Assembly (NCBI GenBank): GCA_951406725.2
Contig: OX597822.1
Span: 101,246,001-101,310,000, forward strand
Direction: 5' to 3'
Length of the DNA stretch: 64,000 nucleotides
Origin: Octopus vulgaris
Taxonomy: Eukaryota
Shown here piece by piece: positions 7,676 to 63,160 of the stretch. Position 1 is the stretch's first letter. Each line of letters starts with the position of its first letter. A program made the translations under genes and the position numbers. Below the pieces are notes generated by a model. That model was given only the letters and a program-made list of their open reading frames with translations. It was not told the origin of the DNA and searched no databases.

Positions 7676-8068
7676 AAGGTGGCGAGCTGGCAGAAACGTT
7701 AGCACGCCGGGCGAAATGCGTAGCGGTATTTCGTCTGCCGCTACGTTCTGAGTTCAAATTCCGCCGAGGTCGACTTTGCCTTTCATCCTTTCGGGGTCGA
7801 TTAAATAAGTACCAGTTACGCACTGGGGTCGATATAATCGACTTAATCCGTTTGTCTGTCCTCGTTTGTCCCCTCTATGTTTAGCCCCTTGTGGGTAATA
7901 AAGAAATAGGTATTTCGTCTGTCGCTACGTTCTGAGTTCAAATATTTCTTTCGGGGTCGATTAAATAAGTACCAGTAACGCACTGGGGTCGATATAATCG
8001 ACTTAATCCGTTTGTCTGTCCTTGTTTGTCCTCTCTGTGTTTAGCCCCTTGTGGGTAGTAAAGAAATA
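7676..8068 (+). mobile_element. SINE family B, head-to-tail dimer
   Basis: GGCGAGCTGGCAGAA head, B box GAGTTCAAATTCC; second unit restarts at GGTATTTCGTC; TSD GGTATTTRGATGTTAA at 7660/8069. Confidence 0.9.
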
Positions 8069-8632
8069 GGTATTTGGATGTTAAGTATCATGGAAAAAGA
8101 CCCAGTGAGACCCTTGACAACAGGTTGTCCGCTTTTACAGATTTAGCCGGAGCAAGTGAAATCAAGAACTCTAAGTGAAGTGAAGTGACAATAAATCGTC
8201 AGCTTATTTAACCGCTTGGTGTAACTAATTTTATTATAATGCACGTGCAGTCAAAATATGTAACGTTAGAACTTGGGTTTAACTGAAGAACGTATGGGAT
8301 CGGTCAGGAAATTATATATAAACGAAGGGTTGATTAGAGACGTTGTACAAAGAGAACTTTTAAAAACGAAAACAAACACATTCATAAACAACTATAAACG
8401 ATCGCATACTGTGAATTATATAAGATACTATTTAGGCAGTCCATGCATTTAGGATTCCCCACCCACAGAACCGGTCAGAAACCATTTGTTTTATCGTTTA
8501 GAACGTTTCACCTCTTTGCTCTCCCCTATTCTGCCGCTCATACTGGAGTATTATGTATCAACATTCTTTGCGTGAGAGGAGACAAGATACAGTACGTACC
8601 CCCTGGAGAGTCCTGCCTTACTATGTTATAAT

Positions 8633-12597: not shown

Positions 12598-13156
12598 TAA
12601 CGTATAAAAAAACTGACTGGACAGTTATGGATAACCTTACTTCTAAAAGTTCGCGGTCTTTTTTTCCCCTGTGAAATAATTTTCTTCAAGAACATGGTAA
12701 TAGCCAACGTTTTCGAGATCCATAAAACGCATCTTGTCATGATAAGAAACAGTAAACACGGCAACAAGATTTACTTAATTTTACTAATACACCAACGCGG
12801 AGATGAAGAAGCAGTTTCGAGTCTTCTAGATCGTACCTGGATAGAATTTGATTTTGATTTGGAAGGTTGGGGAAGTGTAAGCTGTCACAATTGTTATAGT
12901 CAGCTACCACAGACAACATATTTGTGATCTACCGGATCAGTTTATCAAAAAAAGCCAACTAGACAAGTCTGATTATTTGTCAGACGTCTGCCACAACTGT
13001 GCGAACCGTGAAGTGGTTAAAACACAGGAGAACGAATAAAGGAATGGTGGCGATAACAATTTCAAAAGACCATTTGCTCATGATAGACATCATGTCTCTT
13101 GTTTACATATATTAGCATTTCATCTCCCTCTCTCTCACACACACATACACACTATC

Positions 13157-13192
<36 letters not shown>

Positions 13193-13217
13193 CTACTCTC
13201 TCTCTTCTCTCTCTCTC

Positions 13218-13640
13218 GTTGGTGGCGAAAAATTTCTCTTGAATTTTTAGCTACCCTGATATTGATTAATTAATGATTTTTTTGCTAATTCTGAAATTAA
13301 ATCAGCAGTTTATATTTGCTGCTGAGAAGTTGGCGCGGTGACGGTAGATTTTGAAAATTTAGAATATATATTCTCGAGGCGTCGATGCTGTCGCCTCATG
13401 GATATATATTTCCCTGGCTTCTTTGCTGACGAGACAGGCCAGTGGCAAATAGATTTAATTTAATTTAATTAAATCGGTTTGCCAATATGTATGTCGAAAC
13501 TATGCATAGTCCAAAGATGATAAGGGTAAATGTTTTTATTTTCCATTGGTTTCTGAATTACAACTATTTAGCGGTTTGAGTTTAGCTGCTCTTTCTAGTA
13601 GGTCGAATGGCCTATCAAGGCCATTCCTTAATATTGTTGT

Positions 13641-13642
<2 letters not shown>
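13218..13642 (+). mobile_element. Non-coding PLE-related/retrozyme-like element carrying a hammerhead
   Basis: Colinear homology with the 493-nt unit at 49005-49797; lies between (TC)n and (TA)n. Confidence 0.8.
13420..13517 (+). ncRNA. Type I hammerhead ribozyme, canonical core
   Basis: Stem I TCTTTG/CAAAGA, CTGACGA 13426-13432, stem II GACA..TGTC with long inner hairpin, GAAA 13496, palindromic stem III ACTATGCATAGT, GUC cleavage after 13511. Confidence 0.9.
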
Positions 13643-13691
<49 letters not shown>

Positions 13692-13795
13692 TATAATAGT
13701 CTGTTTGCCTAACTGTCTGTCTTTCTGCATGAAGTAATAAATATATTTATGATTGTATGTTTGTATGCATTTATGTGTGTGTCTGAGTATGCATG

Positions 13796-15729: not shown

Positions 15730-16330
15730 TTATTTCTTTATTGCCCAAAAAGGGGCTAAACATAGAGGGGACAAATAAGGATAGACAAACGGATTAAGTC
15801 GATTATATCGACCTCAGTACGTAACTGGTACTTATTTAATCGACCCCGAAAGGGTGAATGGCAAAGTCGACCTCGGCGGAATTTGATTTCAGAACGTAAC
15901 GGCAGACGAAATACCTATTTCTTTACTACCCACAAGGGGCTAAACACAGAGGGGACGAACAAAGGCAGACAAACGGATTAAGTAGATTATATGGACCCCA
16001 GTGCGTAACTGGTACTTATTTAATCGACCCCGAAAGGGTAAATGGCAAAGTCGACCTCGGCGGAATTTGAACTCAGAACGTAGCGGCAGTCGAAATACCT
16101 ATTTCTTTATTACCCACAAGGGGCTAAACATAGAGGGGACGAACAAGGACATACATAGGTATTAAGTCGATTACATCGACCCCAGTGCGTAACTGGTACT
16201 TAATTTATCGACCCGAAAGGATGAAAGGCAAAGTCGACCTTGGCGGAATTTGAACTCAGAACGCAGCGGCGGACGAAATACTGCAAAGCATTTCGCCCGG
16301 CGTGCTAACGATTCTGCCAGCTCGCCGTCT
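15730..16330 (-). mobile_element. SINE family B tandem trimer
   Basis: Three units about 180 bp apart, joined at GAAATACCTATTTCTTTA; only the last has the full head. Confidence 0.9.
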
Positions 16331-23451: not shown

Positions 23452-24039
23452 TGTTTCTTTATTACCCACAGAGGGGACAAACAAGGACAGACAAACGAAT
23501 TAAATCGATTAGATCGACCCCAGTGCGTAACTGGTACTTAATTTATCGACCCCGAAAGGATGAAAGACAAAGTCGACCTCGGCGGAATTTGAACTCAGAA
23601 GGTAACGGCAGACGAAATACCTATTTCTTTACTACCCACAAGGGGCTAAACACAGAGAGGACAAACAAGGACAGACAAACGAATTAAGTCGGTTACATCA
23701 ACCCCAGTGCGTAACTGGTGCTTAATTTATCGACCCCGAAAGGATGAAAGACAAAGTCGACCTCGGCGGAATTTGAACTCAGAACTTAAAGACAGACGAA
23801 ATACCTTTTTCGTTACTACCCACAAGGGGCTAAACACAGAGAGGACAAACAAGGACAGACAAACGAATTAAGTCGGTTACATCAACCCCAGAGCGTAACT
23901 GGTACTTAATTTATAGATCCTGAAATGATGAAAGGCAAAGTCGACCTCGGCGGAATTTGAACTCAGAACGTAACGGCAGACGAAATACGGCTACGCATTT
24001 CGCCCGGCGTGCTAACGGTTCTGCCAGCTCGCCGCCTTA
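23452..24039 (-). mobile_element. SINE family B tandem trimer
   Basis: Three units joined at GAAATACCT; full head at 24000-24039. Confidence 0.9.
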
Positions 24040-28819: not shown

Positions 28820-28888
<69 letters not shown>

Positions 28889-29147
28889 GAGTACAGAAAT
28901 TCGGGGTGAGTACTTGATAATTGTAAGCACCTGTATATACCGTTTGGTGGTATTAGGAGAAACAGAGGCGGAAATAGCAGATTACACAAATATATATGAT
29001 ACAACATACCATACAACTTAGCAGTTAGGGGTAAATTATGTAAGAGAATATTCTCTATCATTTCCAACAACTTCCCACCCACCCATAAGTATAGAAGTAT
29101 CTTCTCCAACAAAACCTATTAGGATCTCCTACTCTACCCTACCCAAC

Positions 29148-29846
29148 ATGAGCTGCCTCATAGCTAAACATAACTATATTAACATGAGAACAGCTAGATT
29201 AAGAGCAAGCTATAACAACCAATCGAACCCCATTCATCCAGACAGTAGACAATATAATCGAGCTGGCAGCCATAATACCCAAACAGTTAGTAATAACACC
29301 CGCCAACACAACAGAGGCAATACCACACCCATCAACAACCAGGAGGATAACAGCGCCCCTACACGTAATGCAACACCTCCGCCTGGGATTAACAGCGCAC
29401 GACCAGGAAATGCAATGCACTGCAACTGCATATGTGCATCCGAATGTCCACTACGTGGTGCATGTAGGGCGAAAAACGTAATCTATTCATGTGAGGTGAG
29501 TACCCAGTTTAACACACTCACCTACATAGGTTGCTCGACCTCCTGGAAATCTAGATACTACAACCACCGGTCCTCGCTTAAGCATAGGCATAAAGCTAAC
29601 AGCACCTCCCTTTCTAAAAAAATTTGGGAATTAAAAGACAAAAGCATAGGTTTCAAACTCAGGTGGTCCATCATCGGATCAGCTGCACCTTATTTAAACA
29701 ATAGAGCAGGATGCCAACTATGTTGTGTAGAACTCCTGAATATCTTGAAATTCAAGGAGAAACACAATCTTATTAACAAAAGGTCAGAGTTCAAACCATC
29801 CTGTATACACAAACTTATTAATACTTTCAAATACTACAAAGCTTAG
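29148..29846 (+). pseudogene. PLE GIY-YIG endonuclease domain (C-terminal part of truncated ORF)
   Basis: CNC..CPLRGAC..NVIY..YIGC..WKSRYYNH..LSKKIWELK..CQLC..E..LINKRSE..C.H. Confidence 0.88.
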
Positions 29847-31420
29847 GCTATTATACCAGCTTCCCCATGCAATTTTCCCCCACCCGGTGCAACCTGTCGG
29901 CTCCATTTCTAACTCTGATGTTGAGCGCACACCACCAAACCCCGCTTCCCACCCTTCCAACTTTCAGTTCACCCCGCCCGCCCCTACGTGGTCACCTTTA
30001 GCACACACCTTTAACTTTACACTTTCAACCACCTTTTATTTTTACCTTCATCTCATGTTAAGCTTTACCCGATTATATTTTTATTTTTATTTTATTTTAT
30101 CCTATTTTATTTTGCTTTATCTTTATTCTTATTTTTATTTTCATTCTTTATATTAATTTTTATAGTTTTTATAATTTTTATACTTCATTTCTAATTTTTA
30201 TACATCTTTTAATATCTTATTTCTATACCTGTATGTGTGGGCATCTGTGTATGTGTATGTAAGGGTATGCGCACACGCGCGTATAGACACACAGATGTGT
30301 GTGTGTGTGTGCGTGTGGATACGTGCGCGTGGGTCCGTGTGTATGTATGTATGCGTGTATGTATGCACACGTGGGTGTGCATGTATGCACACATATATAT
30401 GTGCGTGTGTGGCTATGGGTGTGAGTATATATATACGTGTGTGTATGTATATGTGTATGTATGTATATGTATACATGTGCATATATATGTATGCATATGT
30501 GTATGTGTATATATATATATATATATATATGTATATACGTATGTGTGTGTGTGTGTATATGTATATGCACATGTATATTGTCCGTGTATATATATGCATA
30601 TTTTGTTGTGTGTATATATATATGCGCATGTGTGTGTGTGTATATGTGTATCTGTATATGTTTACACGTGAGTACGTATGTATGCTTATATGCTTGTGGC
30701 TGGGTATGCGTGCATATATGTGCGCGTGTATATGGGTGTATGTATCCATGCGGGTACGTATGTACCAGATGACCACTTAATACGTTACGAAGAACTAGAG
30801 GAACTAGATAAGCTGCTCAACAACTCTGATTTACAATACACTAAGTCCCCAGACGCCCCTGTTGATCTATGACACCCAAGACTTCTACAACCAGAATTTG
30901 TCATTTCCCTGACCACCATGTTTGGTCCGTAACTACTATATATCCCTTATCCTTATATTCTTTTACATTTCTTATTATTTTTATTTCTATTTTTATTTTT
31001 ATAACTTTATACCGTTATATTCATTTATATTTTTTTATATTTTTTAATATTTTTTATATTTTTTATATCTCTTTATATCTTTATACTCTACATTTTTATA
31101 TTTTTCTATACTTTCACTTTTTATATATTTTTTATCCTTCGTCCTGAATTCTCGCCCCTCCATCTTTATCTCTATTTACTCTTATTACCAGGTTCCTTCA
31201 CGTCTGTCTGCATTTATATATTTATATATGTATATATTTATTTATTAATTTATTTACATTACTTCAACATCCAAATTTCCTCATTCTACATTGAGAGAAG
31301 AACGAGATGGACGCTTCATTTTTATGCTGTTGCCGCATTATGTCGTACGCGAATGAGAGGATTTGCATCCCCAACCAAGAATTTTTGATGTAATACATGT
31401 CCTTGTGGAAGTTATTGTGC

Positions 31421-31498
31421 GCGGCTGAAGAAGGCCACAGACATACATTATGCATTGTTATAAATCCGTCTAATAAAGGCCCGAAACATATGTACCGC
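31421..31498 (+). ncRNA. Type I hammerhead ribozyme at PLE 3' end
   Basis: GCGG CTGAAGA AGGCC..GGCCC GAAAC ATAT GTA CCGC; palindromic stem III ACATATGT; predicted cut after 31494. Confidence 0.8.
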
Positions 31499-31531
31499 TG
31501 AATCCTTGGCATCATGTTTTTATTTTGATTA

Positions 31532-31566
<35 letters not shown>

Positions 31567-31805: not shown

Positions 31806-33457
31806 ACAAAATGATATGCTGTCGCTTATTCATCTCGAAGTCATGAGTTAATTTCTGTTACTGCGTTACACGTTAATTTTGTTAAACGTTTTTTGTTGTG
31901 CGGTTACACGGTATTTGTCTGTCTGTGTTGAGACAGACAAGGACAGCCCCTCCCTAATGGGAGAGACGGCAAGAATATTCGAAACCCAATCAGACTTGTC
32001 TACGTCTGAGGAGAAGTTGGAGGAAGCGGTAAAAAGAATGGATCAAAAATTGGGTAATACCTATGCTGGAGTTGCTAAAAAATCAGAGGAGAGAGAGTTG
32101 GACTTAGCCAAGCTGCCAAGTTACCAGAAGTTTATCAAGAAAGAGGGCGGTGAGGTGGAATTAGCACCGCCACCAAAGCGTAGAGAATGGTACGAGAAAA
32201 GGACCATTACATACAGGGTCTATGTAAACGGAAAGAGAAAAATCGAAGTGGTAAATATGGAATGGATAGAAGAGGCTCTGAGAAGAACAGAGGATGAGAT
32301 AACATTTCTGACAAGAGGTATAAGCTACGGTATTGTGGTGGTACAGTTCAGGAGTGAAAATGTAGCAAGGAAGATGGCGGCGAAAGCAGTAAAGTCTGAG
32401 AGGGTATTCCTTTTACCCTCATACCTAAACAGGAAAATCACTAGAATAAGGGTAGAGGGAATACCCCCAAATGTCGAAGCTGAATGGATTGTGGCAGCTA
32501 TAATTAGCGGTCATGAAGAGGAAGTGAACATCCTCCACGCCACGGTAAAAATCGAAGGCTGGAGAGGCACAACGCTAGATTTGAATGCACAAGCGGAGGA
32601 TGAAGTACTAGAGAATCTAACAGAGAATATCAGAATGGGAGGCGTGATCATGAGAGTGTGGGTGGAGGGCCGAGCTCCTCGCTGTTACAAATGTGGCCTG
32701 AGAGGGCACATAAGAGCTAACTGCCCTCCCCCAGAGAAAGATATGGATGCGGAACCACAAAAAGAGGCGGAAGAAGTGCAGAAACCAGAAGAGAAAGAGA
32801 CAACAGAAGAAGAAGAGGCTTCAAAATAATGGGAAGAAGCCAGGAAAAAGAGGAAAAGAAGAATAAGAGGAAAAGCAAACAACACGGAATACCAATCCAC
32901 CCCAACACCACCCACACCCTCTGAGTCCCACCCTCTCCCCACAGACAGTGAATCCACCCGCTCCCCTCCAATAAGAAAACAGAAAAGAAAAGACACACAC
33001 AACCAAAATACAAAAAATGAACCCAGGCCCAACATTGTATGTATGACGGGAAAAGAAAAGATTAAAAAGACAATGGAAGAATATCAGTGGTGTGACAGAG
33101 GACCGATCAGATATGCAGTAATTGAAAAGGAACGAATGGACGAGTTTATGGAAATGTGTGTTAGGGAGGATTGGGAAGTAAGTGAAGTGAGAATGGACGA
33201 AAAAAATCATGAGGGATTTGGAAGAGACGTTTGAAACAAGGATGGAGATAGATGGATTTTGTATAGGAACTGAACAAGGAGCATTTGTGTGGGATTAATA
33301 ACTAAAGGACAGGTAAGAGATGCTAGCGGATGGGGCCGTTAGCATCACTTTCATAATATCATTTTCAAAATTCATCTTTCATTTTTATGTAATCGTGATG
33401 TTTTATGTCCCCAATGTTTGTAGTGTCCCCTCTGTGTGGCCCTTGTGGGTAATAAAG
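31806..33457 (+). mobile_element. ORF1-only non-autonomous Tx1/L1-type retroelement (half-LINE)
   Basis: TSD AAAAAAAATTACCCAACTCAC at 31785-31805 and 33458-33478; single gag-like ORF; AATAAA at 33451; tail shared with Tx1 and SINE B. Confidence 0.85.
31957..33234 (+). pseudogene. Tx1-type ORF1/gag-like nucleic-acid-binding protein (about 425 aa) with one in-frame stop at 32827
   Basis: TYAGVAK, RRM-like TRIRVEGIPP, zinc knuckle CYKCGLRGHIRANC. The frame continues after TAA as WEEARKKRKRR into ORF 33043-33234. Confidence 0.85.
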
Positions 33458-39413: not shown

Positions 39414-39614
39414 GTCTGTCTGTCTGTCTGTCTGCCTGCCTGCCTGCATGTATGTATGTATGTATGTATGTATTTATGTACGTACGTACACACACAATCA
39501 GTATTTTCGGAGAGCTGTAATGCCACAACATCATTCAACGTATTTTGCTGGTGGTAGTTACGAGGACGCTATATGACTTCCAGTGACATAGATATGAGAA
39601 ATGTTTAACATTAC

Positions 39615-39843
39615 ATATTTCTTTATTACCCACAAGGGGCTAAACATAGAGGGGACAAACAAGGACAGACATAGGTATTAAGTCGATTACATCGACCCCC
39701 AGTGCGTAACTGGTACTTAATTTATCGACCCCGAAAGGATGAAAGGCCAAGTCGACCTCGGCGGAATTTGAACTCACAACGTAACGGCAGACGAAATACC
39801 GCTAAGCATTTCGCCCGGCATGCTAACGTTTCTGCCAGCTCGC
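39615..39843 (-). mobile_element. SINE family B
   Basis: TSD TGTTTAACATTAC at 39602/39844. Confidence 0.92.
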
Positions 39844-40949: not shown

Positions 40950-41420
40950 ATAATGTGAAAAGTAGACCGAAACTTCGTCAGTAAAAGCAAAAATCCTCAT
41001 TAAAAAAACGCTCACGGTTCCCATATACATATTTTTCTTTCTTTCATCCTTCCATGGGCCCCGTAAACTTTGACAGAGTAGTAATGAGGTAGTCGAAATA
41101 CACGACGTTTCTTGTGCACGTTTATATGTGCAAGGATTTTGGAGCAAAATCCCTGATCCCATCACTGGTAATATATTTATTGAACCTGGAAGAATAGAAA
41201 GCAAAGTTGCTATGGGCGGAGTTTGAACTCAGAGGAAGGAGAGCTGAAACGAAATACGTCGCAACATTGTATATTATGTCACTGAAAGCACTGCCGAGTC
41301 GCCAATACACACACACCCACACACACAGAGGCACACACATGCATACAGTCACAGACAGACATACCCCCCGCGCACACATAAACGCGCACACACACACAAA
41401 CACACATGCAGTAATTAAAT

Positions 41421-41660
41421 ACCTATTTCTTTACTACCCACAAGGGGCTAAACACAGAGATGACAAACAAGGACAGACAAACGGATTAAGTCGATTATAT
41501 TGACCCCAGTGCGTAACTGGAACTTATTATTTAATCGCCCTCGAAAGGATGAAAGACAAAGTCGACCTCGGCGGAATTTGAACTCTGAACGTAACGGAAG
41601 ACGAAATACGGCTACGCATTTCGCCCGGCGTGCTAACGTTTCTGACAGTTCGCCGCATTC
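41421..41660 (-). mobile_element. SINE family B
   Basis: TSD GCAGTAATTAAAT at 41408/41661. Confidence 0.9.
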
Positions 41661-48897: not shown

Positions 48898-48902
<5 letters not shown>

Positions 48903-49794
48903 AATCAAGGAACGGCCATAATAGGCCATTCACCCACTAGAAATAACAGCCAAAAGCTTCAACCGCAAAATAACATCAATTCCGTAGACCAGGAGAAAAT
49001 TAAAATTGGCTTGATTTAATTTAATCAGGTTAGTTTACCATTAAACAGTAGACGAAACGGTGCATCGTATAAGAAATTACAGGGTAAAAGTTTTTTTTTA
49101 ATTTTCTCCTGGTCTACGGAATTGATGTTATTTTGCGGTTGAAGCTTTTGGCTGTTATTTCTAGTAGGTGAATGGCCTATTATGGCCGTTCCTTGATTGT
49201 GATGTTGAACTTAAAAATGGTTTATGACTATTTAATTTTTTCCCACTAGGCCGCTGGTGGCAAAAGAATTCTACAAAATTTTTTTGCCACCCTATATTGA
49301 TTAATTATGAATTTTCTGGTTAATTCCGTAATGGAATCGGCGGCTTATATTTATTTGCTGCCGATAAATTGGGCGTGAGTGCGATGATTTGAAAATTTTA
49401 GGTCAGATATTGCCGAGGCAGGGACGGGAATGCCTCGTGAAAAATATCTGTTCCGACTTGGCTATTTCTTACTGATGAATCTAAGGGCCTATGGTAGATT
49501 GGCTTGATTTAATTTAATCAGGTTAGTTTACCATTAAACAGTAGACGAAACGGTGCATCGTATAAGAAATTACAGGGTAAAAGTTTTTTTTTAATTTTCT
49601 CCTGGTCTACGGAATTGATGTTATTTTGCGGTTGAAGCTTTTGGCTGTTATTTCTAGTGGGTGAATGGCCTATTATGGCCGTTCCTTGATTGTGATGTTG
49701 AACTTAAAAATGGTTTATGACTATTTAATTTTTTCCCACTAGGCCGCTGGTGGCAAAAGAATTCTACAAAATTTTTTTGCCACCCTATATTGAT

Positions 49795-49797
<3 letters not shown>
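48898..49797 (+). mobile_element. Retrozyme/PLE-pLTR-like tandem element: 1.6 copies of a 493-nt unit plus a 108-bp 5' inversion
   Basis: 49005-49304 = 49498-49797; 48898-49005 is the reverse complement of 49096-49203; (TA)n on both sides. Confidence 0.88.
49464..49570 (+). ncRNA. Type I hammerhead ribozyme
   Basis: Stem I ATTTCTTA/TAAGAAAT, CTGATGA 49472, long stem II (first pair A.C), GAAA 49547, stem III ACGGTGCATCGT, GUA cut after 49562; 3' half repeated at 49048-49077. Confidence 0.85.
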
Positions 49798-49851
<54 letters not shown>

Positions 49852-62122: not shown

Positions 62123-63160
62123 TGGCCCGAAACCGTCGAGAAGCTTAACGAATTTCACACTCTTATAAATGGGCTCAACACAAACATTATTTTCACAATG
62201 GAATACAGCCCTCAACAAATTCCCTTCCTCGACATCCTCATTAAAATTCACAACAAAAAAATAGAAACAGACATATACTACAAGCCCACAGACTCCAAGC
62301 AATACCTCCCTTTCAATTCATGCCACCCTAGACACGTTAAAATTAACATTCCCTACAACTTAGCCAAGAGAATTTGCACTATAGTCTCCAATAAAAACAC
62401 CCGTCTCTTACGTCTACAAGAACTCAAGGGCACATTAACAAGCAGGGATTACCCCACGTCACTAATTGACAATGGGATCCAACGCGCCCTAAAACTCAGC
62501 ACGCAGGAACTTAGACGCCCTAAACCTGTTACATCGAAACCCCATACTCTACCATACATCTCTACACACAACCCCCTCAACAATGAAGCTTTTGACACCA
62601 TCCTCCAGAACATTCCTGTATTACAAAAGGACCATAGAATGAACCAAATCCTCCTAACACACGAAATCATAAAGAGCAAAAGGCAACCCAAATCATTGAA
62701 AACCATCCTAACAAATGCCAAAGTACAGCCAACCACAACAACTAAACCCACAGTAAACAAATGCAATAGACCCAACTGTGGTATATGCATCAACCTAATA
62801 GAAGGTCCGGAATTCCTTTTTAAACAAGGACAACGTTTCACAGTAAAACACAACTTCACATGCGCATCAGAAAACCTAGTATATGTCTTAACTTGCTCGG
62901 GATGTAATGAACACTACATAGGCCAAACAAAAAATAGCCTCCGCCAACGCATGACTGTCCACAGATCCCAAATAAAAATACAGGAATATAGAAAAATAGC
63001 ATTTAGTGCACATATTGATACCTGTGCCGCACAACTCCATCCCAATTTTAGAATCTTTCCCCTCTACAAATTTAAAGACAATGCCACTCATACCCAGCGA
63101 ATAACCATGGAATCCCACCTTATTAATAAATACAGACCACTTCTAAACACATGCCCCTAA
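62123..63160 (+). pseudogene. 5'-truncated Penelope-like (Neptune-type) RT C-terminus, Cys linker and GIY-YIG endonuclease, open frame
   Basis: [50 protein letters not shown]; no stop over about 345 codons. The ORF-track N-terminus is microsatellite. Confidence 0.92.

Follow-up and report, generated by a model that had tools for sequence, protein, structure and literature searches.

Animal non-LTR retrozymes, known from coral, mussel and axolotl, are AT-rich, coding-free units arranged head to tail, each with a type I hammerhead ribozyme (Cervera and de la Peña 2020, PMC7229834; bioRxiv 10.64898/2026.07.22.740005), and they are further marked by a palindromic stem III, a highly self-paired predicted circle and Penelope-like elements in the same genomes. 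Their movement is treated in both accounts as a hypothesis, with Penelope-like elements named as the likely partner and the mechanism not demonstrated. Hydra-clade Penelope-like elements are in turn described as inserting as partial tandems, with an inverted 5'-truncated arm and a tail at one end, as targeting (TA)n and as carrying a hammerhead near the 3' end (Craig et al. 2021, PMC8557442).

We find the features of both systems in a repeat of Octopus vulgaris, one copy of which lies about 13 kb into the window analysed here (64,000 nt of contig OX597822.1). This coding-free hammerhead repeat of ~470 nt is likely an animal non-LTR retrozyme, copied into (TA)n by Penelope-like enzymes. By every feature tested, its clan of families likely belongs to the animal non-LTR retrozymes (see also PMC6155905), a likeness seen at the level of DNA sequence; the present analysis documents both inverted arms and fixed ends.

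The repeat also differs from what has been described. Its monomers measure 470-490 nt, against 170-400 nt (PMC7229834) and 51-972 nt (bioRxiv 10.64898/2026.07.22.740005); its stem II of 63 nt is unlike those of the animal retrozymes described; and the ribozyme is largely masked in its predicted fold, a trait found in some mussel circles but not in most of those from animals (PMC7229834). The fold outside the ribozyme is backed here by covariation, a word with no occurrence in the main text of PMC7229834. Unlike Hydra-clade elements, the retrozyme has no reading frame (the unit contains no protein-like frame of at least 130 aa), and no similarity was detected to the autonomous ends tested. Its tail is ~100 nt, compared with the 30-40 bp described (PMC8557442) and ~70 nt in the local Hydra-type element, which shares with the retrozymes an A·C/GUA core and an ACCC near the long end.

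Our literature searches returned no report of a cephalopod retrozyme; supplements and repeat libraries may contain these families. Because this kind of element is already known, the surprise is moderate. The clan bears a direct Penelope insertion signature, shares its genome with young autonomous elements of the Hydra and Neptune types and comprises at least eight diverged families for comparative structure; it makes testable whether a circle is the template, which of the hairpins are required by the partner enzyme, and whether A·C, A·A and U·U at the base of stem II are tuned or broken. It also represents an abundant class of long-stem hammerheads that Rfam misses.

The window copy is a member of a repeat dispersed through the 2.8-Gb genome, with top matches 95-98% identical among the best 40 of 1,996 candidates. 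Relatives were collected by flank scans, DNA searches and patterns; exact patterns identified at least 855 stem-III motifs and at least 1,592 terminal motifs genome-wide, and none in each reversed control. The family A ending occurs in 15 among the first 100 stem-III motifs listed. Families A (that of the window copy), B, C, D, E, F, F2 and H are joined by whole-unit BLAST at ~66-87% identity, and further sublineages exist. Family B (monomer 492 nt, top matches 97-99%) is represented by a unit about 49 kb into the window, which is homologous to the 13-kb copy (68% identity over 452 columns, E 2e-28). Between-locus divergence is 1.4% in family B and 4.4% in family A, and family B is the younger. 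A further family, G, has a ~550-nt unit with a layout and end motif like those of the clan, a stem III of 1-2 pairs and a GUU site; it gave no whole-unit BLAST match to A-H and was excluded from the covariation tests. Families I and J were considered as clan members and rejected, as they show no relation outside the ribozyme.

The window copy and its hammerhead

The window copy comprises 0.9 of a unit, truncated at the 5' side, and its 3' terminus lies at the "short" end of family A. It differs from the family A majority by 6 substitutions, none inside the ribozyme. It has no coding sequence, and as 0.9 of a unit with one ribozyme it cannot release a monomer alone. The 2-kb bin that contains it has a GC content of 34%, and its folding z-score is -4.85 (-6.41 for the 49-kb unit). 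The features of the copy are as follows.

13155-13217: (TC)n/(TCTG)n flank
13220..13642, + strand: copy of the family A retrozyme, covering ~1-422 of the ~470-nt monomer
13221..13255, + strand: hairpin P1, GGTGGC/GCTACC
13286-13296 with 13550-13560, + strand: long-range helix P2, which encloses the ribozyme domain
13302..13325, + strand: hairpin P3, TCAGCAG/CTGCTGA
13364..13409, + strand: two-part hairpin P6, ATATATATTC..GAGGCG/CGCCTC..GGATATATAT
13412..13526, + strand: type I hammerhead motif
13416-13419 with 13437-13440, + strand: predicted loop1-loop2 pseudoknot, GGCU with GGCC, with modest covariation support
13420-13425/13512-13517, + strand: stem I, with a CCCT/AGGG extension across an internal loop
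13426-13432 and 13496-13499, + strand: hammerhead core, CUGACGA and GAAA
13433-13495, + strand: stem II, 63 nt with an internal loop
13499-13510, + strand: palindromic stem III; GUC site with C17 at 13511 and a predicted cut after 13511
13606..13625, + strand: hairpin P11, AATGGCC/GGCCATT, whose outer pairs alternate between A-U and G-C from family to family
13643..13695, + strand: (TA)n flank at the 3' end, likely the target

Directly beyond the (TA)n run, at 13696-13710, ATAGTCTGTT corresponds to the stretch of the unit that follows; the run may therefore have expanded inside the element, and the copy may reach unit position ~445.

The initial annotation had described a fully canonical core with a GUC site, and this is what we find, with a G10.1-C11.1 pair at the base of stem II. 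The same combination of G-C and GUC is present in 30/32 family A motifs, and stem III is palindromic across the families inspected, a known mark of dimer cleavage (PMC4209133). The Rfam search gave no match here at the gathering score, and the hammerhead was absent among the 28 matches at E≤10; the likely reason is its 63-nt stem II, interrupted by an internal loop. In folding predictions, the active form lies 2.8 kcal/mol above the ensemble for a 136-nt piece and 6.7 above it for the whole copy, with the energy of the pseudoknot outside the model. We consider it probable that the transcript would cleave itself, and likely that it would do so during transcription or as a dimer, since the palindromic stem III permits dimers and the active form is not the one that the whole unit favors. 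In frogs, in vitro cleavage is reported for just one of nine predicted retrozymes (bioRxiv 10.64898/2026.07.22.740005).

The 13-kb motif had been rated the likeliest active ribozyme in the window solely for its canonical core. We regard that ranking as doubtful because A·C with GUA is fixed in the younger family B and present in a young Hydra-clade element, whose hammerhead in the window the ranking had left out of account; the motif is the most textbook hammerhead in the window, and not clearly the most active. In family B, the parsed units have A10.1 in 44/44, C11.1 in 48/48 and GUA in 47/48 (54 examined, 6 unparsed). Among 100 anchored clan motifs, 56 are G-C/GUC, 17 A·C/GUA, 8 G-C/GUA and 6 A·A/GUC, with 13 others. 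Family B and the unrelated Hydra-type element have A10.1·C11.1 with GUA in common, and two lineages are too few to claim that G-C/GUC and A·C/GUA are coupled states. Several lineages have A10.1·A11.1 with GUC and a B-like subfamily has U10.1·U11.1 with GUC; the stem II base thus appears unusually plastic. A CCGAUGA core variant (U4 to C) is common to tandem units and to more than one family (4 loci).

Parts of this variation have precedents. GUA is a working natural cut site, and the sCYDV-RPV (+) hammerhead combines a long stem II broken by internal loops with an A at the cut site (both PMC1636495); U10.1·U11.1 is a known natural variant (PMC3088659); and a related trait, one base left unpaired between positions 9 and 10.1, is reported for Penelope hammerheads (PMC4209133). 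A10.1·C11.1/GUA and A·A/GUC as fixed states of expanding animal repeats are absent from the available text of PMC3088659 and PMC1636495. No A10.1·C11.1/GUA pairing was reported in the literature that we searched, in which subscription papers and supplements are incompletely covered and an earlier description is possible. A pattern search for G10.1 cores with a non-T stem III start and AGGGTAA gave no matches. Within families, core bases are mutated in 5/399 cases (A) and 2/599 (B), too few events for a claim of a lower rate.

Loop complementarity suggests that a loop1-loop2 pseudoknot forms, which we think somewhat better than an even prospect; a pseudoknot between stems I and II is found in ~40% of hammerheads (Perreault et al. 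2011, PMC3088659). Of 124 motifs, 11 had no anchor and were set aside. Across 48 family-haplotypes, the third position forms C-G in 32, U·G in 7 and U-A in 4 and is broken in 5, and the fourth position pairs in 22/48, in four ways. The permutation test is weak (p ~0.02 with 48 family-haplotypes, not significant with 21 distinct haplotypes), and there were no same-branch events in the automatic alignment, where the pseudoknot is out of register.

Altogether 170 distinct hammerhead motifs were present in the examined loci, mostly of targeted families, with none in the reversed control. Many other long-stem type I hammerheads, unrelated to these and also with a palindromic stem III, were chance finds in the flanks of 10 loci, and the genome may contain very many such ribozymes.

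Insertion anatomy and the copying template

Full insertions have a recurrent anatomy, as in the family B insertion in the window.

48898..49800, + strand: family B insertion, with an inverted arm (48898-49005), 1.6 direct units (49005-49800) and (TA)n on both sides
49472, + strand: family B ribozyme core, A10.1·C11.1, GUA

In the partial upstream unit of this insertion (49005-49254), the cut-site half is kept and CUGAUGA is missing, so the downstream core could in principle cut the upstream unit at a distance.

At 29 family A loci we mapped 47 arm 3' ends, of which the short end accounts for 23 and a long end, lying another ~100 nt around the unit, for 16; at 20 family B loci, 14 of 39 were at the short end and 19 at the long end. 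The long end of full insertions mostly falls 8-18 nt downstream of the ACCC of P1. Fixed 3' ends adjoin TA-type repeats in 34/39 (A) and 32/33 (B) cases. Neither fixed 3' end coincides with the cut site, and 5' ends lie there in only 1/47 (A) and 0/39 (B) arms. The commonest layout is one inverted and one direct arm (16/29 A loci, 17/20 B loci). Arms exceed one unit in 16/47 (A) and 24/39 (B) cases, the longest being a pure tandem of 4.3 units. Animal non-LTR retrozymes lack LTRs, a primer-binding site and a polypurine tract, and any target duplications they have are long; none of the examined insertions has an LTR-type layout, and target duplications are masked by the microsatellite flanks. 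The insertions thus have the hallmarks of the Penelope type: tandems, an inverted 5'-truncated arm, two fixed ends and (TA)n. The proposal of a replicating or retrotransposing RNA holds in its second half; nothing here points to RNA-to-RNA replication.

We propose that source arrays would be transcribed, that hammerheads would cut the transcript to unit lengths, which likely circularise, and that the folded RNA would be copied into (TA)n sites by enzymes of a Penelope-like element, its reverse transcriptase and its endonuclease, with the conserved hairpins serving closure, stability and recognition by the partner enzyme. That the template is circular is, on balance, favoured. Units within an array are closer to each other than units of different loci (0.74% vs 1.38% divergence in B, 3.3% vs 4.4% in A), which would fit copying round one template and is no proof of a circle. 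Contigs from 4 of 24 sequencing runs guessed to be RNA partially cover the unit, most highly near the terminal hairpins; they are uninformative on ends, strand and circles, and none of the runs with the unit is recorded as RNA.

The strongest competitor, which we nevertheless judge improbable, is a non-autonomous Penelope-type element copied from long linear multimers, in which the hammerhead trims or cuts rarely and no circle forms. Families with non-consensus cores (A·C in B; A·A, U·U and CCGAUGA variants) have still expanded, and 5' ends away from the cut site fit uncut multimers as well as they fit circles. Many variants private to a locus occur in just some units of an array (60/69 in B), which later decay also explains. 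Against this, the hammerhead stems covary strongly, with 10 same-branch compensatory events where 0.95 are expected in the tree test described below; the predicted circular folds of families A, B, C and H pair across the unit junction; and relatives in coral, mussel and axolotl form circles (PMC7229834). We continue to prefer a retrozyme that would be cut, and probably closed, before it is copied.

Covariation outside the ribozyme

The comparison of the 13-kb copy with the 49-kb unit had been taken to show compensatory changes across the whole RNA, and the helices and motifs named in the initial annotation are all present where it placed them; P2 was absent from its list. We scored a pair as D when both sides change and the pair is kept, and as S when one side changes and the pair is kept. 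The TCAGCAG helix has 1D+1S, the GAGGCG helix 1D, the GGTGGC helix 1S and the GGCC hairpin, retained in the 49-kb unit as had been said, 1S with the pair kept. Outside the ribozyme there are accordingly no breaks, but just 2 D (with 3 S) in the 26 pairs of these four helices. Within the hammerhead, stem I has 3D, upper stem II 1D+1S and stem III 1D+1S. GACA/TGTC had been set against TCTA/TAGA with a shift of one base; once this is corrected, the G10.1-C11.1 pair is broken to A·C in the 49-kb unit, and 2 D come next. For families A and B alone, the 83 pairs of the A fold outside the ribozyme have 5 double changes against 2.4±1.1 (reached in 427/20,000 null draws), and 88% are paired against 84% (2,051/20,000). 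The two-sequence case for selection on the fold is suggestive, not strong, and becomes solid with more families.

When family majorities were compared on the A fold (83 pairs outside the ribozyme, 7 other families), 399/478 cells were paired, where a null of matched columns gave 76% (0/20,000). Double cells numbered 47 (null 22, 0/20,000) and pairs with a double change 22 (null 13, 7/20,000). We also examined 23 real copies, chosen by hand with regard to their length and to coverage of the families, and aligned on sequence alone: outside the ribozyme, 87.3% were paired and 22/62 pairs had a double change, which 0/500 shuffles reached, and sliding the partners lowered pairing to 35-46%. On a tree of these copies, 11 same-branch compensatory events lay outside the ribozyme against 2.3±1.5 (0/5000 null draws). 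Homologues, which had been suggested as the check, thus reveal significant covariation outside the hammerhead across families.

Some results count against a selected fold. On the tree, pair-preserving changes made up no larger a share than under the null (0.49 vs 0.48), and the long-range helices P2 and P12 were not significant singly; further pair types did not exceed the shuffles of the 23 copies (81/500). RNAalifold, its recovery limited by truncated and decayed copies among the 16 raw ones supplied, returned unsupervised just P6, P11 and a short core-hiding hairpin (25 pairs, 13 with a double change).

Where this selection acts can be judged from decay within families. Stems and loops decay equally in the 41 units of family A (159/6625 and 221/9045, both 2.4%), which points to selection on the source lineages while inserted copies drift; in the 63 units of family B, the values are 0.9% for paired and 0.7% for unpaired positions. 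Selection for a multi-hairpin fold, as the initial annotation had it, therefore stands for the source lineages and not for the window copy.

A second alternative, which we regard as very unlikely, is that the seemingly compensatory changes arose by DNA-level correction of quasi-palindromes through template switching. The element is prone to inversions, and both strands fold better than shuffles, with z-scores so alike (-5.4/-4.7, -6.1/-5.9) that they do not distinguish RNA from DNA. Most of the significant helices are local hairpins. Yet P2, whose strands lie ~260 nt apart and which is not significant by itself, has double changes in 5/10 pairs among the 23 copies, and the non-palindromic core CUGANGA/GAAA is preserved across families. 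Double changes are nearly absent within families (2 kept among 147 changed cells in A, 0/93 in B). One-sided changes, read on the + strand, yield G·U more often than A·C (35 vs 11, p = 5e-4), a bias to which base skew may contribute. We continue to attribute the covariation to selection on RNA.

Candidate partner elements in the same genome

The window contains the remnant of one candidate class of partner.

about 28820-31560: Hydra-clade Penelope-like remnant, with RT C-terminus and GIY-YIG frame at 29022-29843
31425..31494, + strand: third type I hammerhead of the window, A10.1·C11.1, GUA, at the 3' end of this remnant

The A·C/GUA core pattern of the Hydra-type family has 1,805 exact matches in the genome, and nearly all of the first 100 listed belong to that family, which is young. 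Relatives with long reading frames occur at five other loci. Where a phylum is on record, the protein clusters nearest to a neighboring element come mainly from molluscs. A second young autonomous type, with 150 scored matches at ≥94%, appears Neptune-like by its motifs. At 62123-63157 lies a Neptune-like Penelope fragment that comprises the RT end, a zinc-finger linker and GIY-YIG; its identity to a family sampled at another locus is 56%.

The Hydra clade appears the likelier partner because the Hydra-type element likewise ends at two fixed places, separated by ~70 nt, and its long end closely follows CACCC, much like the ends of the retrozymes, most of which fall 8-18 nt beyond YACCC. The retrozyme profile matched 0/9 loci of Hydra and Neptune autonomous ends, and no longer similarity was detected. 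On these sequence likenesses a Hydra-clade partner seems possible, at somewhat under even chances. A fuller reading, speculative and unlikely to hold in every part, would join several of these observations: the whole ~470-nt fold would be a conserved docking structure for a Hydra-clade Penelope RT, two hairpins would define two fixed places for priming on an RNA circle, with ~100 nt between them, and the ribozyme would be a pseudoknotted type I hammerhead with a long stem II, whose stem-II pair and cut-site base switch together (G-C/GUC, A·C/GUA) and are tuned separately in the retrozyme and the autonomous element.

It is less likely again than quasi-palindrome correction that some autonomous Penelope-like element has the unit as its terminal repeat (pseudo-LTR), the window copy being a solo remnant. 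The insertion anatomy matches that of Penelope-like elements, other hammerhead families in this genome do adjoin RT or GIY-YIG frames, and frog retrozymes resemble pseudo-LTRs (bioRxiv 10.64898/2026.07.22.740005). The clan itself forms pure tandem arrays of up to 4.3 units, and a piece of Penelope-type frame occurs near just 14/178 loci, and near 2/30 unselected loci, in no fixed arrangement; Pfam was weak on short fragments (GIY-YIG at E 0.0065 for 1/9). A viroid-like replicator that copies RNA to RNA and is occasionally reverse-transcribed into the genome is hardly credible: predicted circles are strongly self-paired and mussel circles differed from genomic copies (PMC7229834), but the ribozyme is found on one strand of the unit alone, and the hundreds of dispersed DNA copies fall into successive age classes with retrotransposon-type ends. 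A retrozyme served by Penelope-like enzymes is the reading that we retain.

Two other features were observed in the window. A 325-aa frame at 31852-32826, with a weak zinc-knuckle match (E 0.0012), is likely a retrotransposon ORF1 remnant. A dispersed repeat with tandem units of 160-184 nt, presumably a SINE, occurs at 7788-8075, 15731-16281, 23467-23988, 39609-39843 and 41417-41653.
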